From positions 1 through 64,000 of the IMG/VR virus record IMGVR_UViG_3300031788_000007: a stretch of 64,000 bases of DNA; one strand, written 5' to 3'. The DNA is from a virus. The notes beneath the pieces were generated by a model. That model did no database searches and was not told the DNA's origin. It saw only the letters and a program-made list of their open reading frames with translations. The first letter of the stretch is position 1, and every line of letters starts with the position of its first letter. Positions 17,590 to 57,500 of this stretch are shown here, in pieces. A program made the position numbers and the translations under genes.

Positions 17590-17600
17590 TAGGAACTCCA

Positions 17601-33337: not shown

Positions 33338-34324
33338 ATGGGGAGGAAGTACATGGGGACACAGACACACAAAGTAGAAGTCGTGCGTATTCAGATCGAA
33401 GCGCATCCCAATGCAGATCGCCTCGATGTTGCCCGAATCTTTGGGTTTACCTGTTGTGTAGCCAGAGGCCAATTCCAAGACGGACAACTTGCCGCCTACG
33501 TCCAACCGGACTCGGTTGTAGACTCGGCGCGGCCGGAATTTGAGTTTCTAGTGGGGCATGAGCGCATCCGCGTGAAGAAGTTGCGCGGGGTGGTTTCGAT
33601 GGGACTCTTGCTTCCCGCTCCCGATGGAGCGCAAGAAGGCGACGATTTGGCAGAGCATTTCGGCGTTACCCACTATGAGCCTCCGATCCCTGGAGAACGC
33701 TGTGGCGAGGTCGAGGGCGGTCCTGTCGGCATCTGGGCTCCAAAGTATGATGTGGAGTCAATGTACCGCTATAAGCGCCTATTTGAGCCAAGAGAGCTTG
33801 TTGTAGCAACCGAGAAGATTCACGGAGCCAACAGTCGTTTCGTGTTCGCACAAGCCGAGGATCGGATGTATTGCGGAAGCCGCGGTGAGTGGAAAGCTCC
33901 GAACCCTGCTGACATTTGGTGGAAGGCACTTAAAACGAATCCTTGGATTGAGGAGTTCTGCCGCCAATTTCCAGGTGACGTGCTTTACGGAGAAGTGTTT
34001 GGAAATGTCCAGAGTCTCAAGTACGGAGCCGGGCCGGGAGAGGTGTTCTTCCGAGCTTTTGACGTGCTGAGAGGCAGCGCATGGAGAGAGTACAACGACT
34101 GGACTCAATACATCTCGGCAGATCATCGCGTCCCGGTGGTCTATGGTGGAGCGTTTGATTTCGACATGCTCGTTAAGTTATCAGACGGACCAAGTTTGAT
34201 ACCGGGAGCGAACCACTGCCGAGAGGGGATTGTAGTGCGACCTATCCCCGAGCGCATCCATGAACACCTTGGCCGCATCCATCTCAAGTTGGTTAGCAAC
34301 ACTTATCTGGAAAAGGAGAAGTGA
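33338..34324 (+). CDS. ATP-dependent RNA ligase (DRB0094-like, N-terminal OB-like domain)
   Basis: TEKIHGAN (motif I), YGEVFG, AFDV, REGIVV, LKLVS. Confidence 0.9.
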   Translation: MGRKYMGTQTHKVEVVRIQIEAHPNADRLDVARIFGFTCCVARGQFQDGQLAAYVQPDSVVDSARPEFEFLVGHERIRVKKLRGVVSMGLLLPAPDGAQEGDDLAEHFGVTHYEPPIPGERCGEVEGGPVGIWAPKYDVESMYRYKRLFEPRELVVATEKIHGANSRFVFAQAEDRMYCGSRGEWKAPNPADIWWKALKTNPWIEEFCRQFPGDVLYGEVFGNVQSLKYGAGPGEVFFRAFDVLRGSAWREYNDWTQYISADHRVPVVYGGAFDFDMLVKLSDGPSLIPGANHCREGIVVRPIPERIHEHLGRIHLKLVSNTYLEKEK

Positions 34325-35520: not shown

Positions 35521-36328
35521 GATTATCGATCTTGAGGGTCAGAGGTTTGGACTACTTGTTGCTCGTAATCGAGCGGGTGTCAATAGGCATGGACAGTCTC
35601 GATGGCTATGCCTGTGCGACTGCGGGGAAGAGACAATTGTGGTTATTGGTAATTTACGCAATGGCATCACGAGGAGTTGCGGATGCTTGAAACACTACGT
35701 ATGCCAAACAAAGTTTAGGACGCACGGAAATTCAAGCGGTGGAGTAAAAACACGAGAATATACAACATGGAGAAACATGCGATCTCGCTGTGGAAATCAA
35801 AATAACACCGAGTGGAAAAACTACGGAGGTCGCGGAATATCTGTTTGCGAGCGTTGGGAATCGTTTGAGAATTTTCTTTTCGATATGGGGAAAAAACCGG
35901 ATGGGTTAAGCCTTGAAAGAGAGGACGTAAACGGAAACTATACCCCGGAAAACTGTCGATGGGCAACACCAAAAGAACAAGTAAAGAACAGGAGAGGAAG
36001 GACTAAATGTAAGCGAGGGCACGAACTAGTGAAGGGTAATGTCTATATCTCCGGTGGGACTCGACACTGCCGAAAGTGTGTTTTGGCGAGAACCTCCAAA
36101 TCCAAGAAACCAACAAATCAGGTTAAGGCTAGAGAATCGTTGGCTTGGGCTGTCAGGTCAGGAAAGATGAAACGACAACCATGTGAAGTCTGCGGAGATC
36201 CTCAATCACATGGGCATCACGAAGATTACAACCACCCATTGTTGGTATCGTGGTTGTGCCCAAAACATCACCTCGACAGACATCATCAACTGCGTCTCCT
36301 TAAGGGAGTGAATGGGGAGACACTGTAG
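35513..36328 (+). CDS. HNH-type homing endonuclease (free-standing)
   Basis: GQRFGLL..WLCLCDCG, YGGRGISVCERW, LEREDVNGNY.PENCRWAT; A-rich relative to neighbours. Confidence 0.85.
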   Translation: MGKIIDLEGQRFGLLVARNRAGVNRHGQSRWLCLCDCGEETIVVIGNLRNGITRSCGCLKHYVCQTKFRTHGNSSGGVKTREYTTWRNMRSRCGNQNNTEWKNYGGRGISVCERWESFENFLFDMGKKPDGLSLEREDVNGNYTPENCRWATPKEQVKNRRGRTKCKRGHELVKGNVYISGGTRHCRKCVLARTSKSKKPTNQVKARESLAWAVRSGKMKRQPCEVCGDPQSHGHHEDYNHPLLVSWLCPKHHLDRHHQLRLLKGVNGETL

Positions 36329-36331
36329 AGA

Positions 36332-37756
36332 ATGAAGATTTGCCTCATCACGCCGCCGTCTCCCTTCTTGCTAGATCAGCGAGTATTCCCCTCACTCGGA
36401 ATCTTGAAGGTCGCGGCGGTTCTGGAGCAAGCCGGTGTACAGGTGGACCATCTCGATCTAACCGGAGTGTCGAACTATGAAGAAGCTGCTAGGGAATATC
36501 AAGGAAATGCTGACGTTTATGCTTTTACCTCCACAACCCCGCAACTGCCAGCAGCTATTAGAATCCGCAGAGCAATTGGTGGACGAAGCGTGCTCGGCGG
36601 TCCTCATGCAACACTCGTACACGCCGCAGCAAAACGTGGAAATTCAAGAGCTAAATCGGCACTGGAAGGCTTGCTTGCGGAGTTTGGAACCGTCGTTGCT
36701 GGAGATGGAGAGAAGGCTATCTTTACGGCGCTTCACTCGCGGGGACTGGTAGACGCCGACGATCCGAAGGGCATCCTTTGGCAGTCGTCTAAAGACTTCA
36801 GCGAGTCACCCTGGCCGGCGCGTCACCTGCTCGACATGGAGAGCTACCACTACAGCATCGACGGCGCCAAGGCGGGGCATTGCATCGGGCAACTTGGATG
36901 CCCCTACCACTGCACGTTCTGCTCCGGCCGTAATTCTCCCATGTTGCGCCAGATCCGGCTAAGGACGCCTGACAGCGTTCTCGCCGAGGTTCGCCACCTG
37001 TATCAAACCTACGGCTTCACCGGAATCAACTTCTTCGACGACGAGTTGAACGTGAACCGGGAGATGATCCCACTGATGCGCGGCATGGCTTCTCTGGCAA
37101 AAGAATTGGGTATCGAGTGGAAGTTGCGCGGATTCATCAAATCAGAACTGTTCAACGAGGAGCAAGCGGAGGTCATGTACGAGGCCGGGTTCCGCTGGAT
37201 TCTGACCGGCTTTGAGAGTGGGTCTGACCGCATCTTGAAGAACATTCAGAAGATGGCCACCCGCGACCAAAACACCCGCTGTATGGAGATTGCCCATACT
37301 CACGGATTGAAAGTGAAGGCGCTGATGAGCTTGGGCCATGCCGGAGAGTCTCTTGAGACGGTGATGGACACCTGTAGTTGGCTATTGGAGACGAAGCCGG
37401 ACGACCTCGACGTTACGGTGATTACCCCGTATCCGGGTTCTCCGTATTGGGATGATGCAGTTCACCTCCGCGACAACGTGTGGCGATACACAGCCACCAA
37501 GACAGGCGACTTTCTCTACATGGAGGAGGTGGACTTCACACAGACAGCCGACTACTACAAAGGCGTTGCCGGGGAGTACGTGAGTCACGTCTGGACAGAT
37601 GAGTTGTCGCAGAAGGATTTAGTCGACTCTCGTGACTGGCTGGAGTGTGTCACAAAGGCAGAGTTAGGGATTGCCATGCCTACTAGCCAGCCAGCAATCG
37701 CTTATGAATCGTCGATGGGTATGACCTCAAAAATCCTTCGGAGTAGTGTAAAATGA
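36332..37756 (+). CDS. cobalamin-binding radical SAM enzyme (class B methyltransferase-like)
   Basis: N-terminal PSLGIL/GGPHAT/GDGE B12-binding pattern; GCPYHCTFC; FFDDEL; GFESGS; PYPGSP. Confidence 0.92.
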   Translation: MKICLITPPSPFLLDQRVFPSLGILKVAAVLEQAGVQVDHLDLTGVSNYEEAAREYQGNADVYAFTSTTPQLPAAIRIRRAIGGRSVLGGPHATLVHAAAKRGNSRAKSALEGLLAEFGTVVAGDGEKAIFTALHSRGLVDADDPKGILWQSSKDFSESPWPARHLLDMESYHYSIDGAKAGHCIGQLGCPYHCTFCSGRNSPMLRQIRLRTPDSVLAEVRHLYQTYGFTGINFFDDELNVNREMIPLMRGMASLAKELGIEWKLRGFIKSELFNEEQAEVMYEAGFRWILTGFESGSDRILKNIQKMATRDQNTRCMEIAHTHGLKVKALMSLGHAGESLETVMDTCSWLLETKPDDLDVTVITPYPGSPYWDDAVHLRDNVWRYTATKTGDFLYMEEVDFTQTADYYKGVAGEYVSHVWTDELSQKDLVDSRDWLECVTKAELGIAMPTSQPAIAYESSMGMTSKILRSSVK

Positions 37757-38367
37757 GGGCATCAGGCGTTGTAGCGCCCGACAAAAGTCACCGAGATAGG
37801 AGTCTCAGGATGCCCCATGACCAGTTTATCTTAGATCGTCACGAAGTATTCATGGAGAGGTTCTTGGCCAAAATTGAGGTCGTTGGTGAGTGTTGGCTAT
37901 GGATTGGAGCCAAACAGAATCCACGAAGAAGCCAGCCTGTCGGTTACGGAGTCATGGTTGTTTGTCCCCGTCCGAGATATGCAATGTTAGCTCATCGTTT
38001 GAGTTGGGTGTTGCATCATGGGCTAATTCCAGAAGGTTTGGGAGTCCTGCATAAATGCGATAATCCTCCGTGTGTAAATCCAGATCATCACTTTCTTGGA
38101 GATCAGAAGGATAACATGGAGGATTGCGTAACCAAGGGTAGGAAGGAATATGGAGAAAATCACTCTCGGGCTACGCTTACCGAGTCTAAGGTTTTGGAAA
38201 TCAGGAGACTCGCCGATTCTGGGGTAGGACTACCCGAGATTGCATCTCGGTTTAACTCTCCTCACCCCACGATTTGGGCCGTAGCTAAAAGAAAGTCTTG
38301 GAGGTATCTCCCAGAAGAATATTCGATGGGGATGGGATTACCACCGTCGATTCTAAGGACAACATGA
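37753..38367 (+). CDS. HNH homing endonuclease
   Basis: CWLWIGA, AHRLSW, VLHKCDNPPCVNPDH..LG..KDNM; C-terminal HTH-like segment. Confidence 0.9.
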   Translation: MRASGVVAPDKSHRDRSLRMPHDQFILDRHEVFMERFLAKIEVVGECWLWIGAKQNPRRSQPVGYGVMVVCPRPRYAMLAHRLSWVLHHGLIPEGLGVLHKCDNPPCVNPDHHFLGDQKDNMEDCVTKGRKEYGENHSRATLTESKVLEIRRLADSGVGLPEIASRFNSPHPTIWAVAKRKSWRYLPEEYSMGMGLPPSILRTT

Positions 38368-38903
38368 ACATTGAACGAGCACTAGCAACGGAAGGATTCA
38401 TGGCTGAAAGCGAGTTGACCTATCTGGCCGAGCTTGCCACAAAGTCAAAGGCCATCGCTGAGGTTGGAACGTGGCAGGGAAGAAGCGCGATAGCTTTTGC
38501 GGAGAATACTCGGGGGAGTGTTCTTTGCGTCGACACATGGGCTGACAACGCCTACGGTAGCGCCTCCGCTGAGATGACGTGCCATCCAAACTGGCTGTGG
38601 GATGCGTTCATGCGGAACACGATTGATCTGGGAAACATCCACGCATGGCGCATGAACTCGGTCGAGGGAGCGAGTAAGGCGAAATCGTTGGGGATGACTT
38701 TTGATCTTGTCTTCATCGACGCCGGTCACAACTACGAGGATGTTGTTTCTGACATCAAAGCGTGGAGTTCAATGCTGGCTCCCGATGGAGTCTTGTGCGG
38801 CCACGACTATGCCGAATATCACCCCGGAGTGATGAAGGCTGTCGATGAACTCGTTTTGAAGTTCAGAGTAGTGGGGACGATCTGGACCACGGAGGGTGCA
38901 TGA
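38364..38903 (+). CDS. class I SAM-dependent methyltransferase (Methyltransf_24-like)
   Basis: EVGTWQGRS, VDTW, DLVFIDAGHNYE, GGV-like GVLCGHDY. Confidence 0.9.
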   Translation: MNIERALATEGFMAESELTYLAELATKSKAIAEVGTWQGRSAIAFAENTRGSVLCVDTWADNAYGSASAEMTCHPNWLWDAFMRNTIDLGNIHAWRMNSVEGASKAKSLGMTFDLVFIDAGHNYEDVVSDIKAWSSMLAPDGVLCGHDYAEYHPGVMKAVDELVLKFRVVGTIWTTEGA

Positions 38904-39490
38904 GGTTTACGATCATCACCCCAACCGTTCAGCGCCAGAGTCTCCTGAAGGCTTGTGCGTCTGTGGATTCTCAGGTGGGAGTTGAGTGGGAACACGTCGT
39001 CATGGTGGACTCCGCAGAGTTTAATGCCGACATGATGCTCTCTCTCGCTCATCCCCGGAGGACGATTCTCCATTGCGACCGGCCGCATCGGAACGGAGGG
39101 AACACTTGCCGGCACAATGCCTGGGCTCTGGCGACCGGGGACTATTTCTTTTACCTCGACGACGACAACTACTTGGCCGACGAGAAGATTCTCGAAGACC
39201 TGTCGATTGCTTTGGAGCAGGCAGGAAACCCTCAGTGGGGAATCTTCCCGATCCTTCGTCACGGTCAGAGGTTCTATTTCAATCCCCCGCAGCCCTGCTA
39301 CGTTGACACAGGGAACGTCGTAGTGAGGCGGGAGGTAGGTAGGTGGCCCGACATCCCCGATTACTGCTCAGACGCGGTTTGGGTGGAGGGGTTGAAGCAG
39401 TATCCATTCGCGGCATTTCCCGATTCCAGGCCGATCATGGTGATGCCGGATTCTAGTTTTGGAGCAGGAGGAGGAATCAATGGGCAGTAA
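38900..39490 (+). CDS. glycosyltransferase family 2
   Basis: FTIITPT, EHVVMVD, ATGDYFFYLDDDN. Confidence 0.88.
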   Translation: MRFTIITPTVQRQSLLKACASVDSQVGVEWEHVVMVDSAEFNADMMLSLAHPRRTILHCDRPHRNGGNTCRHNAWALATGDYFFYLDDDNYLADEKILEDLSIALEQAGNPQWGIFPILRHGQRFYFNPPQPCYVDTGNVVVRREVGRWPDIPDYCSDAVWVEGLKQYPFAAFPDSRPIMVMPDSSFGAGGGINGQ

Positions 39491-40181
39491 TCCAGTTTTG
39501 ATCTTGACCCACAACTGCCTTGAGTTGACGAAGAAGTGCGTGGAGTCGGTGAGGAAGCAGGACGTTCCAACGTATCTCTGCGTTATTGACAACGGTTCTA
39601 CGGATGGAACGGTTGAGTGGTTTCTTTCACAAGGAGTTGATGGAGGTTTGTGCAAAAGTTTTGTGAGCAACGAGGGGGTATCGGCGGGGTGGAATGTCGG
39701 ACTCGAAATTTGTTTCAATGTGGATAAGGCGGATCATGTGCTTGTGGTCAACAATGACACGATCCTTCCACCATGGCTCTATCGCTCTCTGTTGGCCTAC
39801 GACGTGCCGTTTGTGACCGGGGTAAGTGTTGGGGAGATGGAGGCCATTGCAGCGCCACAGCCGCCCAAGGAACTCGCTCCGTGCCCTGATTTTTCGGCAT
39901 GGCTGATGCGCCGGGACTGTTGGGATAAGGTGGGAAGGTTTGACGAGCGCATGAAGCACTACGCCTCTGATAACGATTATCACGTCCGAGCGCACCGGGC
40001 GGGTGTTCCTTTGATGAACGCGGGAGTACACTTCTATCACGAGCGGTCTTCGACTCTGAAGCTGGCTCCTCCTGAAGAGCATCTGGAGATTTGCCGACAG
40101 GCAGACGCTGACCGGGAAGTTTTCAAGAGCATCTACGGATGTATGCCGTGGGAGCCGGGATACGCAGAGTTGTTCAAGTGA
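39480..40181 (+). CDS. glycosyltransferase family 2
   Basis: IDNGSTDGT, GWNVG, VVNNDT, VGRFDE..YASDND. Confidence 0.9.
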   Translation: MGSNPVLILTHNCLELTKKCVESVRKQDVPTYLCVIDNGSTDGTVEWFLSQGVDGGLCKSFVSNEGVSAGWNVGLEICFNVDKADHVLVVNNDTILPPWLYRSLLAYDVPFVTGVSVGEMEAIAAPQPPKELAPCPDFSAWLMRRDCWDKVGRFDERMKHYASDNDYHVRAHRAGVPLMNAGVHFYHERSSTLKLAPPEEHLEICRQADADREVFKSIYGCMPWEPGYAELFK

Positions 40182-44500: not shown

Positions 44501-44888
44501 GGGAATAACTCGCATCTACCTATTCCAAGCGAAGTTGAAGTACCTGCCGCTGGCGATGACGCGGCAGAGCCTTGACACGTATTGGCTTCGGTTTGGAACC
44601 GACGAGAGCAAGATCTGCAAGCAGGCTTACTTCGAGTACAACGCGGGAGCGGTCATCAGCGGAGCGGTCTACTACGATGACAGCCCTACGGTCGGATTTC
44701 CGTTTACATTGCCACAGTATTCTGGAATCAGAAACCCGCTTCGGGTTCGGTTTCCTGCCGTAAAATTCAGGATGATGCGCTGTATTCTCACGAGCGCGGC
44801 AGACTTCCAAGTGTGGAATGAGAGTAACTTTGAAGTAAAGCCGCTGTGCCAGGGGAAGGGATACGCTAAGTTCCCGATGATGCCGTAA
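41541..44888 (+). CDS. tail hub/nozzle (P22 gp10 / T7 gp12-like) with inserted beta domains
   Basis: 1115 aa, T/G/V-rich; IYRRGG, YLYWT..GCVGP...FYLGLDG beta-propeller pattern; precedes ejection genes. Confidence 0.7.
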   Translation: MADAPYQTQNFLLKSLGVVARPADDAVDPGHYLQLDSLEEIEENSLASRLGTTILNKVGTAAMPIAGSFLIGNPNVHSLQKLSSIPAQGNVSGAWRYASRGARLYRIAGLNPGAYTLLSASLNGQPWGSAVYSPSVTGYPYLYIADLNGMLKDNGSLAAPQKAGIFQPQYPVQAQAQPLSEIVLDSFVGSTYATSGVGAFTANTTVNTSTSGSAIAVTGLQEVVFAASWRDLFQSLIFDVGGANQETVLVLQVTDTGFVANFTKTHLTGVTVNEAGWTGTVATSTTATVSKTFVGTPIAAWPTTLDPADYIGLSLYVGDPNAIQSITLQFNTANGAYFYRTIGQGPLQQALNAQTDSSTAAETAVLTDTLGVYTPASGGVTSLNTVPGWTPFLVQLESFSGAGGADFNDPVTNWQNVTGYQITIVTGAGIATTSFPITIKAGSLLLLGGAGPDTFAGVAYDYLVTYFNINDYTESNPSMSMTNVNPPSNTNWVYPRRQPVLLTITNGSSDTQITHLRIYRRGGTLGDNYRRIDQVPLTAGTGGTQTYLDIWSDADIQQADVVSFTNDVPVTSPLPVPMNNTLGSAIVTTNGVVTVVLTNQYDTLTGGFTVPLWVGQQVNIGNVVAANFETVIVLTVTRVGILGRFITGFTAFVQNTHALNEPLSATAKYGQPFNIMAVAFDQGWYAGDYQNPSYLYWTPKGNLQAVSSASYEPVSSPGDGITAIVGTAANLFVSTLQRWWSVAPGSNVNSSPTIYPTNVDHGCVGPRAWTLKDGTVFYLGLDGLRTMRGGGGEYISEIIEFVWQNTGPTPIPIADPTQFATVQASWWNRWVFFSYIALDGNRHRIILDVDNKRYRCDDLDAHSMFLEEDTGTLVWGDSQGLIHLDRQLVQYDETNVAGTVTQSPIAFTLQTPYGNQGMPEVQKQYQEFTLDCNTNGNPVGVTLSFDDGETTEFIGTVTTTVRERINLNINNGEGFQAYKASLLLTGSGITRIYLFQAKLKYLPLAMTRQSLDTYWLRFGTDESKICKQAYFEYNAGAVISGAVYYDDSPTVGFPFTLPQYSGIRNPLRVRFPAVKFRMMRCILTSAADFQVWNESNFEVKPLCQGKGYAKFPMMP

Positions 44889-44981
44889 ATGATTGTTGTG
44901 GATAGGGAGGTTCGGAGGTATACTGAGGGTGTCGGGAGTGCGAATCCCGGCCAAGCCTAATCGCTACTGGAGGTAGCAACC

Positions 44982-46124
44982 ATGACACCCTCAAACATCA
45001 ATTTAACACCTTTCACAAAACTGTGCCGCAAGGGTCTTCACGAGTACGACGCAACCAAGAAGCTCTGTCCTGAATGTTCCCGAGCCACAAAAGCATCTTG
45101 TCAATTGAGGAACAGAGAAAGATATGTAAAAGCCAACAGCGATAGATACTATTCAAACTATGAACGAAGCAAGGCAGAACATGCGGAATATAGGAAGAAG
45201 AATAGAGAGAAAATCAACGCAAGGCAACTAAAATCTTATCATGAGAACTTAGAGCTAAGGAGAAAACAATCAGCTAAGTATTGCCAGAAAAACAGGGAAC
45301 TGGCGGTGTGGAGAGCGATGGTTCTGCGCTGCACGGATACTAAAAATAAACAATATGAGGATTACGGAGCCAGGGGAATCAATGTTCACAGCGAATGGCT
45401 TGGAGAGAATGGGTATAAGGTTTTTCTCCGAGATATGGGGAAGAGACCAAGCGACAAACATACTCTCGACCGGAAGAATAACGATTTAGGGTACACCCCA
45501 GACAACTGCCGGTGGGTTTTGCCTATAGTCCAAGGAAGGAACAAAAGAAACAATCACCTTATCGAGTACAACGGAAAAACTCAATGCTTGTCTGCGTGGG
45601 CAGGGGAAGTCGGTGTGGGTTCTTCTACTCTGGCAAGGAGAATAACCTTCTGGGGTATAGATAGAGCCATGACCCAGAAACCGCGAATTGTGAACCAAGG
45701 GTTTCACCGTCAACTATGCGACCGAGGCGCAGCATGGTTACGCGACGAGAAATCGTGCCATACAGTCTTTACCGAGTGCGCCCGTAACGTGGACGAAAAA
45801 CCCGACGCAATTGGATGGAGTGGTGAATCTACGTACCTCGTTGAATGTAAGACAACGCGTACCAACTTCTTCGACGATGCCAAGAAAAAGATGAGGTTAC
45901 ACCCAGATAGAGGTGTCGGTTTATTCAGGTACTATCTAGTCCCAAAAGGCATGGTTCTACCAAAAGACGTTCCTGAAAAATGGGGACTCCTGTACGATGG
46001 AGATGTAGTGCAAATAGTCAAAGAGGCTGTTCGGTTCGATGTGAGAAATATCGAAGCAGAGACGCACATTCTTTCTCCGCGGCCTGGAAGGTGGAAAAAT
46101 GGGGCAAACAAATCAACTCCCTAA
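44982..46124 (+). CDS. HNH-type endonuclease fused to an MmcB-like PD-(D/E)xK domain
   Basis: YGARGINV..W, LDRKNND.GY.PDNCRW; then PDAIGW...LVECKTTR..F..D, RYYLVP, WGLL. Confidence 0.75.
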   Translation: MTPSNINLTPFTKLCRKGLHEYDATKKLCPECSRATKASCQLRNRERYVKANSDRYYSNYERSKAEHAEYRKKNREKINARQLKSYHENLELRRKQSAKYCQKNRELAVWRAMVLRCTDTKNKQYEDYGARGINVHSEWLGENGYKVFLRDMGKRPSDKHTLDRKNNDLGYTPDNCRWVLPIVQGRNKRNNHLIEYNGKTQCLSAWAGEVGVGSSTLARRITFWGIDRAMTQKPRIVNQGFHRQLCDRGAAWLRDEKSCHTVFTECARNVDEKPDAIGWSGESTYLVECKTTRTNFFDDAKKKMRLHPDRGVGLFRYYLVPKGMVLPKDVPEKWGLLYDGDVVQIVKEAVRFDVRNIEAETHILSPRPGRWKNGANKSTP

Positions 46125-46515
46125 ACCGACATTCATTGGAATTACGCAGGATCATCAACGATTTCTTAGCCAACTGACCGACGCGACGAACACCTTGCTT
46201 GGGTACAACGGCACGATCCCGATGGTCAACACGCTCGATCTCAACAACAACCCCATTCAAAACGTAGCCGCTCCGGTAGCGCCCACAGATGCCTTGAACC
46301 TCGGGACGGCGGAAGCTAAATACGCTCCATCAGTGACCGGCCCTCAGTTGGATGTGGGAGGGTCGAACTCGTTGAAGGGGGTGACGTACCTCTACACTTG
46401 GAAGAACAAGGGTTTGAGCGTAACGATCACGACGGCGAAGCTGACGGGCGGGGGGACGAACGGGAGTATGACCTTCACTGCGGGCCTCTTGACCGCGCAG
46501 GTCCAAGCCACTTAG
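46099..46515 (+). CDS. small tail/needle-like structural protein
   Basis: LDLNNNPIQNVAAPVAPTDA repeat typical of tail fibres. Confidence 0.6.
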   Translation: MGQTNQLPKPTFIGITQDHQRFLSQLTDATNTLLGYNGTIPMVNTLDLNNNPIQNVAAPVAPTDALNLGTAEAKYAPSVTGPQLDVGGSNSLKGVTYLYTWKNKGLSVTITTAKLTGGGTNGSMTFTAGLLTAQVQAT

Positions 46516-46561
46516 GAGTATGCTGTTGTGGGGAGTCCAAAATTTGGACTGAGGAGGGGAT

Positions 46562-47365
46562 ATGGGGACAGCAACATCATTGACTCTGGATATGCTCAAG
46601 GTGATGACGCCAGATAAAGGTCTGGTGTCGGTCGGCGAGGGGCCTTGGGGAGAGATTTACGCCGATTACCTGAAGAACGCCGGAAACAGGAACATTGTTT
46701 GGAAGCGTCGGCAATTGGGTATGACGACGTTCTCTCTGGCGCGAGGGTTCTTGAAGGCCGCCGAAGGGAAGACCTGCATCATCGTTGCCCATCAGTTTGC
46801 TGGAGCGGATTACCTTTGGGATATGGTGGAGACATTCATCGCTAACCTTCCTGCTCCACTGCCGATCAAGTGGAAGAATAGTCAGAAGCGCTATTTTGGA
46901 TTGGATGGGCGCTTCCCAGCGCAATTCCAAATTGGTCACTTGATGATGGCTGGATTTGGATTAGGAATGAATGTAGACTTTGTTCACTTGCAAGAGTTTG
47001 CATGGTGGCCGAGGCGCGATCAGGAGAGGGTGTGGCAGGCTTTGGCTCCATGTCTAAAACCAGACGCCGAGGTAATCATTGAATCCGCTCCAAAAGAAGA
47101 AGATAACGGACTGTTTGACGAAATATGGAAAGGAGCACCCGCATACGGATTCACCCGTCACTTCTTCCCGTGGTGGAGGGATTCTCGTTACGTTGCCGAG
47201 CCCGTCGATCCTAAGAGTCTGAAGAAGGCCGAGAAGGAATTGATTGACGATCATGGATTGACGCTGGAGCAAATCGGCTGGAGGCGCAAGCAGTGTGACA
47301 GATTCATGGAACTCTACGGAAGTGAGAAGATGTTCAAGATGGAGTACAGTGAATCGGTCCAGTAA
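46562..47365 (+). CDS. stand-alone, degenerate terminase ATPase domain
   Basis: WKRRQLGMTT, IIVAH, HLQEFAWW, IIESAP, FFPWW, WRRKQ, MFKMEYS collinear with TerL N-half. Confidence 0.85.
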   Translation: MGTATSLTLDMLKVMTPDKGLVSVGEGPWGEIYADYLKNAGNRNIVWKRRQLGMTTFSLARGFLKAAEGKTCIIVAHQFAGADYLWDMVETFIANLPAPLPIKWKNSQKRYFGLDGRFPAQFQIGHLMMAGFGLGMNVDFVHLQEFAWWPRRDQERVWQALAPCLKPDAEVIIESAPKEEDNGLFDEIWKGAPAYGFTRHFFPWWRDSRYVAEPVDPKSLKKAEKELIDDHGLTLEQIGWRRKQCDRFMELYGSEKMFKMEYSESVQ

Positions 47366-47381
47366 GAAGAGGGGGTAAGGG

Positions 47382-47984
47382 ATGTACGGATGGGGATGGT
47401 ACGGAACGAAAAGTCTTCAAGTGGTTCCTGTAATGAAGGGGACGCCATGCTTTCTCGACGGCATGATGAGCCACTTGTATTACGAGACGAAGCGGCTTGG
47501 TAAAATCCGGCAAACATTCTGTGGAGACGAGTTCTCGCATGACCACTTCATAGCCTACTTCGAGGCTCTGAAAACCGCTCAAGTTCTCTGCCGGGTGACC
47601 GATGAGGGGAAGTTGATTCCGGTCGGATACAGTTGGGTGAGCAATCCGCGAGGGGTAGACGGAGGCCGGGCCGCGCAGTGCGGGTTCTGCTTCTTGGAGG
47701 ACGGCAGTTCGGGGAAGTCGAGCGCAAGGGACTTGGCGAGATTGGCTGTAGCGTATGCTTTCGAGGATTTGCGGATTGACACAATCCACGGCGTCCAGGT
47801 CATCGACAACATCGCGGCCAGAAACTTCTCCATGCGGCTCGGCTTCAAGCCGGTAGCGGTGGTCCCTGATTACCATGCCATCGACGGCAAGTTGGTAGCG
47901 GCTCAGGTGATGATGCTCAGGAAAGCCGATTTTTGGCCTGGGTTTGTGGCGTGGAAAGAAAAGCAGCCGAAGGTGGGCGAGTGA
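47382..47984 (+). CDS. GNAT-family acetyltransferase-like virion-module protein
   Basis: AYAFEDL..., N.AARNF..RLGF motif; syntenic with P22-like gp14. Confidence 0.7.
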   Translation: MYGWGWYGTKSLQVVPVMKGTPCFLDGMMSHLYYETKRLGKIRQTFCGDEFSHDHFIAYFEALKTAQVLCRVTDEGKLIPVGYSWVSNPRGVDGGRAAQCGFCFLEDGSSGKSSARDLARLAVAYAFEDLRIDTIHGVQVIDNIAARNFSMRLGFKPVAVVPDYHAIDGKLVAAQVMMLRKADFWPGFVAWKEKQPKVGE

Positions 47985-48222
47985 ACACGATCGAAGAGAA
48001 TCTTGACGAGAAGACGAAGGCCGCCTTGAAGGCGTTTCGAGAAAGTCTTTGCGCAGCGGCGAAGAAGGCGTATTCTGATTCCAGCATCGGAGCGAAGGGC
48101 GACTTCTCACCTACTCGGATTGAACATCCAAACGGAGCCAGCCCTTCCGATGTTTCTGACAATCATTAAAATCCAGTAGAAAACTTCGCACAGGTGTCGT
48201 ACCCTCCCTGTAGGAGTGCCGC

Positions 48223-48999
48223 GTGTCGAAACCTGTAAGTAGTGCCGGTGCAGAAGTGGCGCAGGACAACCTCGCTAATCAAATGGCCGCTACGGGGGCC
48301 TCAATGACGGCGGAGAACCAGCAACTCTTTGGAATGGCTCTCCCCGGCCTCCAGCAAGCGGAGACGTACTACGGGACGCTGGCCTCTGGCGATCCGAACG
48401 CTTTAGCAAGGGCGAACGCTCCAGCGATTCAGGCGCTCACGAAGTCTACAGACTCAGCCAAGAAAAACATTATGCAAGACAATCCGAGAGGAGGGGAACG
48501 GAACCTCGCCCTTGAGGAAGCGGATTTGTCGAAGGGCGCCCAGATCGGGCAACTGGAGACGGGATCGTATCTTTCATCCTTCGGTTCACTGGCGAGTCTG
48601 GGTGGTCAGAACGTCGGGCAGGGGACATCGGCAGCTTCGAGCGGGTTGCAGGGAATGAACGCGGCGGCGAACCAGTACGGAAACATTCAGCAGATCAATG
48701 CAGCGAACAAGGCGCAGACGATGGGCACGGTTTCTGATTTTGCCGGGATGGCGATGGAAGGTGCGGCGATGTGCTGGGTGGCGGCTGAGTTGTTCGGTGG
48801 CTGGACTGACCGTAGGACGCACATGGTCCGGTACTGGCTCAAGAACGTGTACTCGAAGACTCTCATCGGGTCGATATTCTGCCGGCTGTATCGGCGGTAC
48901 GGGGAGTGGACTGCCAAGCAGGTACGGACTTACAGGCCGGTTCGGTTCGCGGTCAAGCCGATCTTTGACCACTTTTTGATGGAATCTCAAACAATATGA
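48223..48999 (+). CDS. DNA ejection (pilot) protein with C-terminal CWVA domain
   Basis: A/G/Q/N-rich helical body; CWVAAELFG...LYRRYGE tail. Confidence 0.65.
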   Translation: MSKPVSSAGAEVAQDNLANQMAATGASMTAENQQLFGMALPGLQQAETYYGTLASGDPNALARANAPAIQALTKSTDSAKKNIMQDNPRGGERNLALEEADLSKGAQIGQLETGSYLSSFGSLASLGGQNVGQGTSAASSGLQGMNAAANQYGNIQQINAANKAQTMGTVSDFAGMAMEGAAMCWVAAELFGGWTDRRTHMVRYWLKNVYSKTLIGSIFCRLYRRYGEWTAKQVRTYRPVRFAVKPIFDHFLMESQTI

Positions 49000-49006
49000 G
49001 GAGGAA

Positions 49007-49765
49007 GTGATGGGTAAAGAGAAATACGAACCGATCAACACCGCAAGAGAAGATCAAAAGACTATCACCTTTGTGTGCTCTTGCTGCGGTTCCCTCGTCA
49101 GGTCGGACTACACAGACGCACACGACAGGAAATGCGGGACGCCTGCGGAAAAGGGGATGGATGTGGTGTCAAATATGACTACCAAAGTTCTCGAATTAGT
49201 TGATGAGAGGAGAAAATCGGCTCCATCTCCGATACAAATATGGAGATTCCCTGAACCTGGGAAGTCCTATATTTTAGCGGCTGATCCCTGTACGGGGAGC
49301 GAGGGAGGAGACAATGCGGCGATTGAAGTGATCGACGCAGAGACGGGGGAGCAATGCGCCGAGTTTGCCGCAGTGGTTTCCCCGGAAGACTTAGCTCCCA
49401 TAATCCTTGATTTGGCGCAAAGGTACAACAGTGCGGAAGTGGCAGTCGAGGTGAACAGCGTCGGGCTGATTACAAACAACATCCTGATACGCCAATACGA
49501 GAACGTCTATCGCTATAAGCGCCTAGATAGGGTCAACCATACCGTGACCGATCTTATCGGTTGGTGGACGGACGTAAAAAAAACGAAGGCACTGATGGAA
49601 TCAGCATTCCGCGTAAGCGTTGAGAGGAATCCAAAACTGCTTAACAGCGCGGGCCTGATTGCCGAAATCCTTGCCTATGACGAGAATGGGTATGAGAAGA
49701 ATGATCGGTTCTCGGCGATGATGATTGCTCAAGCGGTTCGTGCCGAAAGAATGGTTACAGTCTAG
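49007..49765 (+). CDS. stand-alone terminase nuclease domain with N-terminal Cys knuckle
   Basis: YILAADPCTG..GGD, AVEVNS; 29/43 identical to TerL over AVEVNS...IGWWT. Confidence 0.9.
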   Translation: MMGKEKYEPINTAREDQKTITFVCSCCGSLVRSDYTDAHDRKCGTPAEKGMDVVSNMTTKVLELVDERRKSAPSPIQIWRFPEPGKSYILAADPCTGSEGGDNAAIEVIDAETGEQCAEFAAVVSPEDLAPIILDLAQRYNSAEVAVEVNSVGLITNNILIRQYENVYRYKRLDRVNHTVTDLIGWWTDVKKTKALMESAFRVSVERNPKLLNSAGLIAEILAYDENGYEKNDRFSAMMIAQAVRAERMVTV

Positions 49766-49789
49766 TCCAAATTTTGGACCGAGGGAATC

Positions 49790-51496
49790 ATGGCTGTTGA
49801 CACACCTCAAATCTCGATAGACCCGTATCGCTCTCAGGTTCCCCTCGTCCAGATCCCTCAACAGGACTTGCAGGGACCGCCTCCGCAGGGAGCCATCTAC
49901 AGCAAGACTGGCGGGATTGCGACCATTGCCGATGGAGCAATGAAGGGGCTGTTGAAGGGCCTCCAAATGAAGGAGGAGAAGAAATACAAGACGGCCGAGG
50001 CGGTGATGAACGCCCAGGACGCTGGAATCTCAGCAGCAAAGAAGAACTACGAAGACCTCTTGACGACCGAAGGGGCGTGGACGGTCAGTAGTGATGGAGT
50101 GGCGAAGACGCCGAACTTGAAGACCCAGGCAGCTTATGCGGCCTGGCAGACGGCAGTGAACGCAGCCGCAGCGCAGCGGCAAGCATTCGCTGTTCCCGAG
50201 AAGACGGCGAAGCCGAAGAAGGGCGAGAAAAAAGACAAGACGGCAGCCGATGGAGCGCCGGCTGCGCCGGGGTTTGGCGGCGCCCTGAAGCAATTCTTCG
50301 AGAGGAACCCGCACGTCCTACCGGAACTGACAATCACAGCATGGAAGGCCGGTCAGAACACACCCTACGGGCAGATGTCGCCGGAAGCCTTACAGGCTCA
50401 GAGGCAGAACACCTCCGCTCAACGGCAGGATGCGACCGAGCAGATTCAACTTCAAGGAGCGCAGCGGACGGCGAACGCTCAGAAGGTCTACGACCAGTAT
50501 TCAGGGTTGAGTGCCGAGGAGTTGGCGAAACTGCCGAGGGAGACGCAGCAAGCCTTCCAAGCAGCCAAGAACGTCCTTGTTCCAATTCCAAGGGCGTCGT
50601 CTACAGAGCGTGAATACACATCTCCAGACGGAAAGCAGAGGGAGTGGTATATCCCAGGCACAGAACCGCAGGGGTGGAACGCTACGGCCAATCCAAGTTC
50701 GGGGACATTGAAGGTTGGGACGGAGCCGGAATTCACTTCTCAGGCATTGAAGGGGTACGGCTACACCGCTGACACTGCACCGCCTGCTTTGTTGAAGTAC
50801 CTGCATGACTCGTGGGCCTACAAAGCGGCGCAAACAACCTCTGGCACATCCGAGCACATGGAGACGGACCCGAAGACCGGGGAGTTGGTTGCGGTCAAGA
50901 CGGGCAGTTCGACGACTCGCGGGGCAGCGGCGCCAAAGCCGCCGGCCGGATTCTCTCCTCTCGGAGAGAATGGGCTACCACAAGAATCAGCCGCAGCGAA
51001 GCCAGCGGGGGACACCGCCTCATCGGCGGCCACGCCGAAGACTGGGAAGATGAGCAAGCCTCCAGCCGCGCCGGGCGCAGGAAAAGGAACGATGACGGCC
51101 GCTCCACTGCCGCCGGGAGTGCGTGACACCGGAATCAAATCACTAGCCGGAGTGCAGTTCGACGTTCACTCTGAGGAGTCAACGGCGAAGTCGTATGATA
51201 CGGCGACCCAAGCGTACAACAATCAAATCAACAAGAATCGGTCAAAGGCCGCGGACGCGAAGAGCTTGGAGGCATTGAACGCTACAGCCCGAGAGGACTA
51301 CGAGAAGGCGAAGGCGAGGATCATCATGTCTAGGGCTGCACACATCAAGACGACCGGCGGTGATCCGTGGAAGGTAGTGAAGCACGGCGGTAAGGATGTT
51401 CAATTTTCTCAAGGCCCAGATGGTGTTTACGGAACGATGGATGGAATAAATTGGGTGAACATCAATACGGGAATGCCGTATTCTGGACAGCAGTAA
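49790..51496 (+). CDS. internal virion/ejection protein
   Basis: A/Q/T/P-rich, between pilot and giant protein. Confidence 0.6.
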   Translation: MAVDTPQISIDPYRSQVPLVQIPQQDLQGPPPQGAIYSKTGGIATIADGAMKGLLKGLQMKEEKKYKTAEAVMNAQDAGISAAKKNYEDLLTTEGAWTVSSDGVAKTPNLKTQAAYAAWQTAVNAAAAQRQAFAVPEKTAKPKKGEKKDKTAADGAPAAPGFGGALKQFFERNPHVLPELTITAWKAGQNTPYGQMSPEALQAQRQNTSAQRQDATEQIQLQGAQRTANAQKVYDQYSGLSAEELAKLPRETQQAFQAAKNVLVPIPRASSTEREYTSPDGKQREWYIPGTEPQGWNATANPSSGTLKVGTEPEFTSQALKGYGYTADTAPPALLKYLHDSWAYKAAQTTSGTSEHMETDPKTGELVAVKTGSSTTRGAAAPKPPAGFSPLGENGLPQESAAAKPAGDTASSAATPKTGKMSKPPAAPGAGKGTMTAAPLPPGVRDTGIKSLAGVQFDVHSEESTAKSYDTATQAYNNQINKNRSKAADAKSLEALNATAREDYEKAKARIIMSRAAHIKTTGGDPWKVVKHGGKDVQFSQGPDGVYGTMDGINWVNINTGMPYSGQQ

Positions 51497-51516: not shown

Positions 51517-54500
51517 GTGGCAGTTCTCGACCAGACCGAGGCTCAAATTCCTGTCGGGTTGACCCCAATCCCACTCGGGCAAGCGCCATCTAGTGAGGCA
51601 AAAATCCCTGCCGGGCTTACTCCTATCCCACTCGGTAGTCAGCAATCGAGTCCAAATTTTGGAGTGAAGTCGCAGACTCAGGCGACTCACGCCGTTACCC
51701 CTCCAGTAGATGTAAAGAGTTCTATCCCTGCCGGATTGACGCCCATTCCTAAGGAAGATTCTCACGTTGACGCTTTCATGGCGGGAATCAGGAAGCCAGC
51801 GGCTCTCCGTCAGCAGGTCTACGACTACACAGTGGGGTCTGGTTATAACGCAGACCAAGGACGCCAGCGCCAGAATGAGTACGACTACGCCATCAAGAAC
51901 GGGATGAACCCACAGCGAGCGCAGGAGTTCGCCCTGGGGATGCAGTTCGAGGGCGGGACACCGAAGTACAATCTCACAGACCAAGAGAAGTCCGATCTCT
52001 ACGGGAAGGCGAAACAGGCCGCAGAGGGATTTAAGAGCGGCCAGCAGAAAACGATTGAAAGTCATTTCCTTGGAGAATCATTATTGCCGGGGGATGACGA
52101 AACATATCGTCAAAACATCGACCCCGACGAATACGCAAGAAACTATGTCAAGGGGTATACCTACGCTCGGTCTCAGGGATGGGATGAAGGGAAGGCGCAA
52201 GAGTACGCCACGTCTGATGCCGCATCGCAGTGGATGACTCGGGCTGGAGAGTGGATTGATCCGAAGTGGCACTCCGTCAAAAGCGCGATTCTCAACGTCA
52301 TTCCCGGCATCTCGAAGCCGGAGGAGAGAGCGGAGAACCCGTTCTTTGCGACGAATCAGGGGTATCGAGAGAATCAGTTCCACGTCTACCATGAGGCTGC
52401 TTGGCTGGATGAGCACGTAGGCAAGGTAGCTGGCAGCGTAGACGCTGGGCTCGGAAACGTGGTCAACGGCTTTTCTACTCCCGGCATGGCAGCATTGATG
52501 GTTGCCAGCGAAGGGCAGGGACTTCTTGCCCGTGGCGGTATAGGGGCGGCCGAAGAAGTCGAGACTGCGAATCTGGCTACACGTGCACTTGGAAGGGTGG
52601 CGCGGGCCGGGGGAAGACAACTTGGCCGGTCGGCAGCGGCAAGCGAGGAGATTGATTCAGCGCAGGCTCTCAGGGCGGCAGAGAACGCAGAAAAGGCCAT
52701 CCGAGCAATTCGTGACGCGAGACTTCCTGTGTCGGCACAGAAGGTGGCGAGAACGTTCAATAAACTCGTCACGGTAGGCTTTACGGCTCAGATGGCGCAA
52801 GGTTCCGCTGAACAACTGGAGCAGGCCGCTAAAACCGCGTTCCCCGGAGAAGGGAAGGACGGCGACAGTGCGCTGGCTGTCGAGTATGCGGTTGAGGGTC
52901 TTGTCAGCGGGTTGATGGCCGTGCAGGGTGGAAACCATCTTCGGCATGAGCATCTTCTCACGTCCGATCTCAACTCAAAGACCGCCGAGATGTACGGGCC
53001 GCAAAAGCTCTCGGATGTTGGCGGCTTACATGAGGGTCCGAGACAGAACGCCGCGACCAAATTTGGCGACCTCGACCCGTATCGACAGGCCGCAGTCATT
53101 CAGCGGTTGATTGAAGATGATCCGAAGTATAAAGCCGCAGAGGATGCAAGCGAGAAGGAGCAAAAGCGGCTTGCGAAGAAGATAGCCTACCGCTACAACA
53201 CAGCATTGCAGCAGGCGTGGAATCCCAACGCGGTAGATCGCATGGTGCGGGTGATTGACAACCATCGCGCAGCGAACGAATGGTACGGCGCAAGACAGAA
53301 GGCGGAGGATGAGGCTCGGAAGCACTACCTCGACCAGATCACGAAGCTCATTGACCTCCACAAGCAAGACAAAGCCGACGAAGAGGAACTTGTTAAGGCT
53401 GAGGCAGAGCGCCGGGCCGCGGCAAGGGAAGGCCGTCCGGTACGGAAGACTGTAGACGCGCAGAAGAGGGAAGAGAGTCGCAAGGTAACTCTGACGAACG
53501 CGGCGCAGATTGCCGAGCATCGGCAGGGGGTAGTAGATGCCCGCGATGTAGCGGATAAGGAAACGGCCGAGCAGGAGAGATCGGAGGCTCAGGACTCCAC
53601 CACGAACTCTCAAAAAGAATGGGACGATCGGTATGCTCGCGTCTACGGTATGCACGCCAGGAATAACCCTGATTGGTCTATGCCTCGTCTCCACGGTGAG
53701 ACGCTAGATATTGTCGGAGAAAGGCCCAAGGAGGATAAACAGGGAGAGTTACGCCACCCGGACGAGGTGACCGACGACCAAGGGTATGTGTCGTACCGTA
53801 GTCAGGTGTTTGGAGGGGAAGAGCACCACTTCGGCGTAGCTCAGACTCCAGACGGGAAGTGGGGAGTCTATCGGAAGACGCCGGATGGGATTGAATACCT
53901 GGGAGCCGGGGGAATCTTTGACGGCCAGCCGCAAGAAAGCTACCTTGCGCCCAATGAAGAGACGGCCAAGGCTCTCGCTCAGATCACTTCCCTTCGGGTC
54001 AATGCCGATTACGCTCTTGAGGAGCATGGAACCACGCCGGAGCGGGAAGCGGAACGGAAGCAACTCCGCGACTTAGAGCACAGTCTGGTAGATGGCACGA
54101 TCACGGGAGAGCAAGCACGCAAAGCCGCCGGACTGCCGGAGGAAGCGCAAGAAGCGCAGGCCAAGGAAAAGGCTAATCACGAGATCGAAGCCGCCAGAGC
54201 AGGAGCATTGAACGGTCCCCTTCACGGCAGAACGAAAGCTCAATACGAAGACGAGTTCCTTGCTGGGCTGGAAGAGGCGGGATGGGAGCCGGAGACGATC
54301 GAAGCGATGATCGACACCCTCCCTCTTCAACTTCGGATGGAGGCTGAGAACAATCTCCACTACGTCGGCCGTTCGGGAGACTGGATTGCCTCGAAGAAGG
54401 GTGTGACCTGGGTTCTCGACTCGAAGGGCATGTTGCAGCCGGACGATGGGATGAGTGCGCCGATCCCACTGATGAAGAATGGCCGCTACTCGACGCAGGC

Positions 54501-57500
54501 AATCGATCTGTCAATGTCGGGAAGGGTTGGATTCGGGCAGCGCAGTTGGGAAGACGCCAAAGTTGAAGAAGCGAAGGAGCGCGAAGCCAATCAGCAGTTG
54601 GAGAATCTTGTCGGAAACGTAGCCGATGAACTCCAGAGAGCCATTGAACTCTCGAAGCAGAACGCTGGCTTACAGATGGAAGCCGGGGAACTCCCTCTTG
54701 AGCGGCCGGCGCCGAAGCCGAGAAGCAGGTTCGCACCTCCAGTCGAAGGCCAAATGGCGGAATCTCCCGAGCGGGAGACTGACCGGGCCGTACAGGAAGG
54801 TCACGAGGCCATCCAAGCCGAGCAGAGGGCATTCGATGAAGCGTGGATTACCTTCATGGCCGAGGATCTGGCTGCGAACCATGAGACTCCGTGGCAGTTG
54901 ATTGAGAGGGTAGCCAAGAACAGCGGCATGACCCCGCAGGAAGTCTTGGCTCTCCAACTTGAGCGGTTGGCTCCTACAGACACCGTAGACGGCAGGATTC
55001 AACGGTTGAAGGCCGGGGACACCATCACCGACAAGATGGGCTTGCCGTGGGTGGTGAGGGCCGACAGGAACGGAACTCTGTATCTCCGTAAGGGGCAGGG
55101 AGCCAGAATCCACGTCAACAAGTTCAAGCCGTCAGACGACGTGCGGAGGATTGTTGGAACGGGAGAAGTTCAGCCGGCGCCAGGGCCGCGGTGGACTCCC
55201 GAAGACGTGCGGAAGGCCGCTTATGAACCTGCCTACATATCCCGCCGCAATGAAGTCATTGAAGAGGTGAAGCAAAGAGAGACGGGAGAGATTAAGGAGC
55301 ATCCACCGGCCACGCCAGAGGTTGCGGAGCGGCAAGCGGTGGCGGCAGAAGACCGTGAAACTCAGGTGAACGATGCGGCAGTAGCGGCAACCGCTGCGGC
55401 TGTTGATCCTCCACCAAAGGCGACCGACAAAGAGATCGACGAAGCCATTTCTAAGGCCGAGGAATTGCGGAAGGTTACCGAGGCCGCAGCGAGACAGGCG
55501 GCAGCCGCCAGAGGGCGCACAGCCGGGCCGGGAGAGTACCCACAGAAGGCGCCCATCACATCGAAGAGGGTTCCAGGGAGAGCATGGGCCGTAGGGCATG
55601 ACGGCTATATCCAGACGATCGCCAGCAAGATTCCCATGCACCGCGAACTCGTTAAATTGAATCAACTCACTCCATCCTTCAGATGGAACGGAAATATGCT
55701 AGAGAGGGTTACTGAGTATCCAGAGCAGATGCAGGATGTCCCCCCCGACGAAGCGACACGTTCACAACTTCTAGCAGATGCCCAGCCGGTCAGGTATGAC
55801 GTTGACCAATTTCTCGACCCAGGTTACGGCCCCGAGCGGGGACCGTCCATTGTGGACATTGGCGGCGATGTAGTTGGAGGGAACCGCCGCTTGCTCAGGA
55901 TGCTGAAGTACCTTGAGTTGATCCATGGAGACAAGGAAGCTCTTGCCGCGTTTCGAGCCAAGATGGCCGAATACGCCGGGAAGAACGGGATGGTGTACCC
56001 AGAGGGAGATGAAATCTACATCCCAGTTCGGATGCTTGACGAGCCGATAGGGACGATAGCCAAAGCGACTGAGTTAGGGCACTTATTCAACAAGAAGGCA
56101 TCTCATGGAATCGACGAAAACGCGAAGTCGATCACCTATGGACGGATGCTTTACGAAGCCCAGAGGACGGAAGAGGCACTAGGACGCAATGGAGTTCTGG
56201 ACCGTATAGCCGATGAGTTCAATAGAGCCGAGACGCCGCGAGATGCAATGGCTAACAAACCTGGATTCTTCGCCAATATAGTGCGAAATGAACTCGGGAT
56301 AGGCGGTGAAGATCAATCAGATTGGTTTAACAAAAACCCGAAGGGAGAATATGAGTTTCTGAGTACGAATGGTAAAGAGAAGCTAGAGAAAGCCCTGCTT
56401 GCCACCGTATTGAAGAATCCGTCTACGATCGACGCATTGGGAAGCTCGACGGCCTACGATTCGTTGCTGAAGTCGATTGGCCCTCTCACGCGCTTACGTG
56501 CCGTTCCAGACAAGGACATCATCAGTGTCATCGAAGAGGCAATTTCAGCCACGGCCACGACCGAGCGGAAAAGGGTTGATGGAGACTCCCCGAGGGTACG
56601 GTGGAATAAGACATTTGGAGAGCGAGAGTTTTTCTCGGACGAGAAGCCCCTCGATGAGCCGGGCCGGATGGTGGAAGCGATTTGGAGGGCATTGCATGAC
56701 CGGAAGACCACACGGTTCAAGAACGCTCTCAATGATTATTTGGTAGGCGAGGGAACCCAGCGTGGATTCTTTGACCCGGCAGAGCATGGATTGAAGACTC
56801 CCGCCGACCTTTTCAATGCGGCCTTCGAGGATGAACTGAAGGACGTGCGCGACTCTCGTGGACTGCAATTGGATGAGGCGAAGAGCGGGAAGTTCAAGGG
56901 CGATAACGCAAGTGGGATGAGAACATTCCTCGACACGCTTTCTTGGGAACTTACTCAGGATCAATTCGACGCTGCTCTTGAAAACCGCGACAATTACGGT
57001 GACGAATCGGTTGAGGATGCGAAGCGGTCAGAGGAAGGGAAGCCGCCACAGGAAGCGCCGAAGCCTGAAGGCGTGTCGAAGAAAATGTTCATCACGAAAC
57101 AAGATGAACGTGACCTGAAAGGACTCGGTTGGAAGCAAGAGCAGATCAATGCGATGAAGCCCGAAGAGGCGCAGGAGATTCTGTCTCTCGGGAAGCAAGC
57201 GCCGAAAGGGTTCAAGCCCCCAGAGCCCCCAGCGCCGAAGCCAGAAGCCGACCTCTCAGCGGCCAAAGCCGAGAAAGGCTACGTCACCCCCGACGAACTG
57301 GAGAAGTTCATCTCTGACCATCCGGCCACCGCAGATCATGCTCCTGAGATCATGCGTACCGCAAGGATGATGGCAGAGTATGTCTTCGATTCAGACCCAC
57401 CGGAGGGAGTGGAGAAGAAAGACGCTCTCGCCTGGGTGTTGGAGCAGCGCGTAGCAAAGTTGGCCTATGAGGAAAAGGGGAAGGGGAGAGGCTCCTACTC

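Follow-up and report, generated by a model that had tools for sequence, protein, structure and literature searches.

A stand-alone terminase ATPase-domain gene in a peat-soil phage: an optional accessory, apparently of foreign descent, with nucleotide-binding residues kept and motor-specific residues relaxed

Truncated copies of the large terminase subunit (TerL) that hold only the ATPase domain recur in unrelated phages, as in the Rak2-like jumbo phages, in phiM12 and in T4, where the example is vs.8. Truncated TerLs have been described by Buttimer et al. (2017; PMC5259590), and Evans et al. (2026; PMC13601566) described T4 vs.8 as an ATPase-like protein that resembles the T4 terminase ATPase and is possibly an anti-defence protein. 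For TerL itself, hydrolysis in phi29, P74-26 and D6E cannot do without a trans arginine finger; HK97 TerL functions without one, by means of a cis lysine, and in isolated TerL monomers the spontaneous ATPase activity is low (PMC7617512). Truncated TerL paralogs are already known from other phages, and the gene presented here adds another. A literature search for the exact phrase ‘truncated large terminase’ gave no match. As a kind, the truncated TerL paralogs that lack the nuclease domain are probably polyphyletic.

The stretch of DNA analysed here (“the window”) comprises positions 1 to 64,000 of a 78,982-bp IMG/VR record, approximately 81% complete, from an uncultured peat-soil phage that is present in many peat and permafrost metagenomes. 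The gene of interest is a real ORF that starts with ATG and is open throughout, coding for 267 aa (hereafter the mini-protein). It is located approximately 30 kb from the terL/portal region, that is, outside the packaging module. The features discussed in the text are collected in Table 1.

Table 1 Coordinates of the ATPase-only gene, its motifs and the other features considered in the window
Feature	Coordinates	Strand	Evidence or remark
TerL ATPase and lid domain, stand-alone	46562..47365	+	ORF, AF2, Foldseek, orthologs of 263-268 aa, dN/dS; MFKMEYS starts at 47330
Deviant Walker A, K48 R49 R50 Q51 L52 G53 M54 T55 T56	46703..46729	+	KRRQLGMTT starts at 46703
L134, position of the trans arginine finger	46961..46963	+	hmmalign column shared with P74-26 R139 and own TerL R204; GLGMN starts at 46958
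End of Walker B, H142-L-Q144-E145	46985..46996	+	HLQE starts at 46985; catalytic Glu kept, preceding residue Gln
C (coupling) motif, E174-S175-A176-P177	47081..47092	+	ESAP starts at 47081
Upstream palindrome (46534-46550) and Shine-Dalgarno GAGGAGG	46534..46558	+
TerL nuclease domain, stand-alone, with Cys-rich N-terminal extension (CxxC...H...C)	49007..49765	+
GNAT acetyltransferase	47382-47984		between 46562-47365 and the nuclease-only ORF
Uncharacterised gene	48223-48999		between the GNAT gene and the nuclease-only ORF
HNH endonuclease	44982..46124	+	phrog_3377, E 1.9e-43; upstream of 46562-47365
Own full-length TerL, 720 aa	13890..16052	+	phrog_2, E 1.7e-20; near the portal gene; KARQMGGST starts at 14199, GRSKT at 14496, HLDE at 14523, ISTP at 14616
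Portal, P22/SU10 type	17586-19436		PF16510

An earlier note on this DNA, made from its letters and open reading frames, had proposed a stand-alone TerL ATPase domain, which the predicted fold, the structural matches and the homology to the phage's own TerL all bear out. The AF2 model of the mini-protein (62-row alignment) is compact, with a pLDDT of 93.6 and a pTM of 0.90, and its best solved matches in Foldseek are the T4 gp17 ATPase 2o0h (E 8e-10), PhiV-1 TerL (8dgc_E, from its complex with Avs3) and the P74-26 TerL ATPase. The best matches among viral models are full-length terminases, with a TM of about 0.8 over the query, and a 235-aa CBB protein annotated as a terminase large subunit (probably CBB_274) appears as a structural match at rank 35. 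Pfam, PHROGs and PADLOC returned no match for the mini-protein itself, and a PDB sequence search with a small alignment returned none either; the 62-row family profile was needed, which in the PDB sequence search matches T4 gp17 with an E of 3e-38 and aligns to its Walker A (SRQLGKT), Walker B and C-motif (TTT/STP). The stop right after MFKMEYS does coincide with a domain boundary, as had been claimed: the C-terminus corresponds to residue 346 of the own TerL, which leaves out the RNase H-like nuclease domain, and none of the 20 stand-alone relatives has its C-terminus more than 23 residues away from there.

P74-26 TerL, the own TerL and the mini-protein were aligned to the family profile by hmmalign for comparing their active residues. 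Every motif difference from the own TerL listed in the earlier note is present in the DNA, but their description as altered catalytic motifs stands only in part. The trans arginine finger (the residue mutated in PDB 4ZNJ) is R139 in P74-26 and R204 in the own TerL and has become L134 in the mini-protein, so the loss of this Arg is real. The Walker A, on the other hand, cannot be called altered. Its canonical lysine position (K43 in P74-26) is occupied by G110 in the own TerL and by M54 in the mini-protein, and an upstream lysine (K48 in the mini-protein) replaces it in the whole family, whose pattern K-x-R-Q-x-G-x-[ST]-T the mini-protein fits; since the upstream lysine is used family-wide, the Walker A is intact for its family. 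At the end of Walker B, Q144/E145 correspond to D149/E150 of P74-26 and D214/E215 of the own TerL. The change from HLDE to HLQE is thus confirmed as regards Gln, but the Asp it was measured against is not the family norm, as the nearest full-length TerLs have Ser or Thr there without exception. As for the change from ISTP to ESAP, it is present, and the difference from the ESTP or ESSP of the orthologs is confined to the mini-protein lineage, position 176 being mostly Thr.

The stand-alone orthologs are proteins of 263-268 aa, 50-87% identical, found on phage contigs of 85-94 kb. Across seven orthologs, with identity down to 50%, 72 columns are invariant, and K48, R50, Q51, G53, T55, T56, H142, E145, E174, S175 and P177 are among the positions invariant in orthologs. 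The dN/dS is approximately 0.12 when calculated against a 68%-identical ortholog, with dS near saturation, and by this measure the gene is under purifying selection and selectively maintained. The invariance of the nucleotide-binding set and the low dN/dS speak against the inactive fold-mimic that had been proposed for it.

Among 1.8 billion representative proteins, 4505 matched the family; most of these are full-length terminases, but there are also further stand-alone proteins of 248-291 aa ending at the same boundary. When 111 full-length and 20 stand-alone sequences are compared (rows that are phylogenetically non-independent, with about five separate losses of the Arg estimated), the arginine finger position holds Arg in 103 of the former and 9 of the latter (Fisher p 2e-6), and a Ser or Thr precedes the catalytic Glu in 111 and 8, respectively (Fisher p 4e-12). 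The catalytic Glu itself is present in 110/111 and 17/20 sequences, and the upstream lysine in 111/111 and 19/20. The subclade of the mini-protein carries Leu, His or Cys at the finger position and Gln, His, Asn or Gly before the catalytic Glu, which is itself replaced by Asp in more distant stand-alone members. The pattern in the stand-alone forms is that residues for nucleotide binding are kept and those specific to the motor are relaxed. The Arg is retained in the basal stand-alone members P0008, P0028, P0029 and P0033, the first three of which are basal in the clade of the mini-protein; the loss of the Arg therefore postdates the stand-alone state, and the family did not begin as a poison subunit.

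The mini-protein aligns with residues 99-346 of the own TerL at 25% identity (BLASTP, E 5e-13), a homology that is real but distant. When the ATPase region is used for a maximum-likelihood tree (quick search on 65 rows), the stand-alone proteins fall into two clades, both separate from the clade of the own TerL and the TerLs of G003, G004 and G006, which has 100% support; the own-TerL orthologs in these three relatives are 49-54% identical. The phylogeny against full TerLs that had been suggested as a check thus places the stand-alone clades apart, and the earlier judgement that the gene is too divergent for a recent duplicate agrees with both the tree and the 25% identity. For the second stand-alone clade, a single 4-kb viral contig (L022) was retrieved, with uninformative neighbours. 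In a panel of full-length TerLs chosen by ATPase similarity, 123 members of which matched the mini-protein, the best BLASTP matches are foreign TerLs (P0009, 37%) and those of the own clade rank 120-123 of 123; no full-length TerL in the sample exceeds an identity of about 40%. Among 185,579 species genomes, more than 588 related stretches were found, and the 80 best of them are without exception full-length TerLs (mostly 500-600 codons) from Acidobacteriaceae, Terracidiphilus and other Acidobacteriota, many of them from bogs. In Terracidiphilus gabretensis S55, the one locus checked (L141), the portal gene is two genes downstream of TerL. Tree and identity place the mini-protein in an old clade of TerL paralogs that stand alone and hold only the ATPase part, and its nearest full-length kin are prophage TerLs of peat Acidobacteriaceae rather than the own TerL. 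This suggests that the gene was captured from a phage lineage that shares the host range of the window phage, which is probably acidobacterial.

A TerL of the type with H-x-S-E and GRG motifs is found in more than 588 species genomes, with the best 80 nearly all from Acidobacteriota, mainly Acidobacteriaceae and Terracidiphilus (L126-L205). Prophages, or prophage-like elements, of this lineage are very widespread among the bacteria of peat.

The ATPase gene occupies two slots in related phages. In the window phage and its closer relatives L104 and L105 it is flanked by the homolog of 46099-46515 on one side and by the GNAT gene on the other, and in a 56%-identical lineage (L001, L002, L106, L107 and L111) it precedes a metallopeptidase gene, with two tRNA-like sequences (judged by eye) and a small ORF ahead of it. 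It is absent from G004 (97 kb, with terminal repeats) and G006 (104 kb), both of which are complete, as well as from G003, and G001 carries both the ATPase-only gene and a full TerL, as does the window phage. It is thus an optional, mobile accessory of related peat phages with genomes of 80-100 kb, in which it uses two variable slots among the tail and ejection genes. The HNH gene upstream, inserted between the gene of a 1115-aa protein and the 46099 gene, is not found at this site in L104, L001 and L002, which have the two neighbours without it; it is therefore a separate, lineage-specific insertion, likely a homing one.

Elsewhere in the window, the giant ORF 51517-63003 (3828 aa) contains a Strawberry-notch/ResIII-type helicase region (AAA_34, Helicase_C_4), and its product may be a large protein that is ejected in the manner of DarB. 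Within the virion-gene region, the cluster at 33338-40181 codes for an RNA ligase, a GT4 ‘conflict-system’ glycosyltransferase, a B12-binding radical SAM enzyme and a further glycosyltransferase (39459-40181). A 99-aa ORF (9363-9662) contains a stretch of 35 residues with 63% identity to residues 45-79 of the 366-aa protein encoded at 21635-22735, which is the putative major capsid protein; it is a second case of a fragment copy of a hallmark protein.

The region ahead of the start codon had been described as carrying a TATGCT box, a palindrome and a strong Shine-Dalgarno sequence. The last of these is confirmed, as GAGGAGG is found approximately 6 nt before the ATG. The letters TATGCT are there as well, but a sigma-70 scan of 44800-49900 found no promoter-like site, which leaves the box without support as a promoter. 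The palindrome, AGTCCAAA-A-TTTGGACT, exists but is not specific to 46562-47365, since the window has 15 copies where 0.16 are expected, which makes it a genome-wide intergenic motif. Its consensus, AGTCCAAA[A/T]TTTGGA[C/G]T, occurs at 15 sites across 627-63275, and several copies, such as those at 16928, 24782, 40469, 46534 and 49764, are located in short gaps, 6-16 nt before starts on the + strand; the palindrome probably serves in regulation or RNA processing throughout the phage. One metatranscriptome run (X24) gave contigs solely at 47929-48393 and 49445-49867 and is uninformative on the expression of the ATPase gene.

What the mini-protein does has to be sought between its conserved and its lost residues. 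ATP binding is probably retained, given the invariance of the Walker A set, of the C-motif and of the catalytic Glu. A role as packaging-motor subunit is very unlikely, because the protein lacks the nuclease/portal-docking half, a trans arginine finger and, ahead of the catalytic Glu, a Ser or Thr. With binding residues kept and motor features lost, nucleotide-dependent binding would be the most likely activity, rather than DNA translocation. The best explanation as a whole, which we hold tentatively and at a little under even confidence, is a nucleotide-binding module derived from the N-terminal part of TerL that is not a motor and acts by binding; the likeliest target would be a terminase assembly. 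The ATP-loaded mini-protein would mimic a TerL subunit that accepts an arginine finger but cannot donate one, and could in this way act on a TerL ring as a cap or a poison, or titrate the small terminase subunit. This ring might be that of the phage itself or, more plausibly, that of prophages or satellites residing in the same host. A terminase assembly is our preferred target, proposed from the residue pattern, although taken by itself it is somewhat unlikely. The identity of at most about 40% to sampled full-length TerLs, which appears low for co-assembly into a foreign ring, argues against a poison subunit.

An active ATPase with a new, non-packaging job, working as a monomer or activated in cis, such as the processing of DNA in the infected cell, is the first alternative, and we consider it rather unlikely. 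The loss of the Arg does not prove inactivity, as HK97 TerL needs no trans arginine finger (PMC7617512), and the invariance of the catalytic Glu, Walker A residues and C-motif under purifying selection would suit an active enzyme, as would the Arg kept in basal members of the family. Against it, two positions that are near-invariant in the 111 full-length relatives are lost or variable in the mini-protein subclade, distant stand-alone members even have Asp for the catalytic Glu, and TerL monomers alone hydrolyse little ATP spontaneously (PMC7617512). A more general proposal, that TerL ATPase domains without the arginine finger are mobile conflict weapons, serving either as poisons of prophage or satellite motors or as Avs/Upx sponges that do not activate, is decidedly speculative. 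As poisons, they would let lytic phages stall the packaging motors of resident prophages or satellites, here those of Acidobacteriaceae.

It is improbable that the mini-protein is an anti-defence decoy, which would occupy the pocket of terminase sensors (Avs1-3, Upx) without activating them and so shield the real TerL. Avs2 and Upx do recognise the TerL ATPase domain, EcAvs2 reads its ATP-loaded active site, and Evans et al. propose that non-terminase Avs2 activators might be anti-defence proteins (PMC13601566). The gene is also optional and found in variable slots beside candidate conflict genes, such as that of the giant ejected protein with a helicase domain, in a phage that has a fragment copy of a putative capsid protein as well. 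Every tested case is however the opposite of a decoy: EcAvs2 is activated more than 1000-fold by the isolated ATPase domains of five terminases, all Upx homologs are activated by the ATPase domain alone, and T4 vs.8 is toxic together with EcAvs2 (PMC13601566). No inhibitor of such a kind is known, and PADLOC and anti-defence families give no match to the mini-protein.

The window also contains a gene for a TerL nuclease domain alone (49007-49765), which raises the question of whether the two are halves of a second, split terminase. The product is 36% identical to residues 409-582 of the own TerL (E 6e-33), with a weak match to Terminase_6C, and belongs to a nuclease-only family of 195-253 aa in which the catalytic D/E/D is mostly kept, as it is here. 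Both genes are present in the window phage and apparently in one other phage (P0006 and P0014 are each on 92,377 bp, taken as the same contig), which together with the intact D/E/D would suit a split enzyme. Nevertheless, an active split terminase, an option the earlier note had considered, is disfavoured by distribution and descent, and we regard it as highly improbable. The ATPase gene occurs without the nuclease gene in G001 (48.8 kb, ~50% complete) and G002 (35.8 kb, ~37% complete), both partial, the nuclease gene without the ATPase gene in G003, G004 and G005, and G006 has neither. The two also shift between slots independently: the nuclease-only gene is found at three different positions in related phages, two of them further positions in G003, G004 and G005, one of which is the slot held by the ATPase gene in the window phage. 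The intervening genes (GNAT and 48223) are moreover conserved in relatives missing either piece. With the same BLASTP panel, own-clade TerLs rank 1-3 for the nuclease ORF; as the nearest kin of the ATPase gene are foreign TerLs, the two genes are of different origin. A complex prediction for the two proteins scored 0.00, which speaks neither way. The nuclease-only gene resembles in its behaviour a free-standing mobile nuclease gene. In the DNA run X7, joints were found from 48991 to 49762 and from 49044 to 49805, with sides of only 20-21 letters, a weak hint of a co-occurring variant without this ORF.

Finally, there is next to no chance that the gene is a decaying, functionless remnant of a captured terL, as truncation exactly at the domain boundary and the lost motor residues could suggest, given that reading frames of 263-268 aa have stayed intact in lineages with as little as 50% identity, and given the dN/dS of 0.12 with saturated dS, the strong Shine-Dalgarno and the compact, high-confidence AF2 fold.

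In comparison with known systems, the mini-protein shares the ASCE P-loop fold and lid of T4 gp17-type TerL ATPase domains (PDB 2O0H, 3CPE; Pfam Terminase_6N type). Unlike gp17, it has no nuclease domain, is encoded outside the packaging module and has an upstream lysine in place of the canonical Walker A lysine (a family-wide feature), and it differs from a functional TerL by the Leu at the position of P74-26 R139 and the Gln before the catalytic Glu. Its nearest full-length relatives, the Terracidiphilus/Acidobacteriaceae prophage TerLs, are 33-40% identical over the ATPase domain and have the motifs HFFPWW, EQIGWRR and QEYxE in common with it; unlike the mini-protein, they are 500-600 aa long, with a nuclease domain, a GRG arginine finger and an H-x-S-E Walker B. 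The truncated TerLs of Buttimer et al. (PMC5259590) are, as here, ATPase-only second genes in addition to a full TerL; they adjoin terL, whereas the window gene is about 30 kb away, optional and apparently descended from foreign TerLs. T4 vs.8 (219 aa; PMC13601566) is likewise a stand-alone, terminase-ATPase-like protein that has Walker motifs and whose phage encodes a normal TerL as well, although it has no detectable homology to the family profile beyond the P-loop (hhalign probability 0.6%), and it is a shown Avs2 trigger, toxic with EcAvs2. To these systems the present locus adds an accessory lineage that is clearly optional and mobile, of foreign descent and not a neighbour of terL, together with a quantitative residue pattern for 20 stand-alone against 111 full-length relatives, which narrows the hypotheses to binding-type roles, and a link to the prophage terminases of the probable host family.
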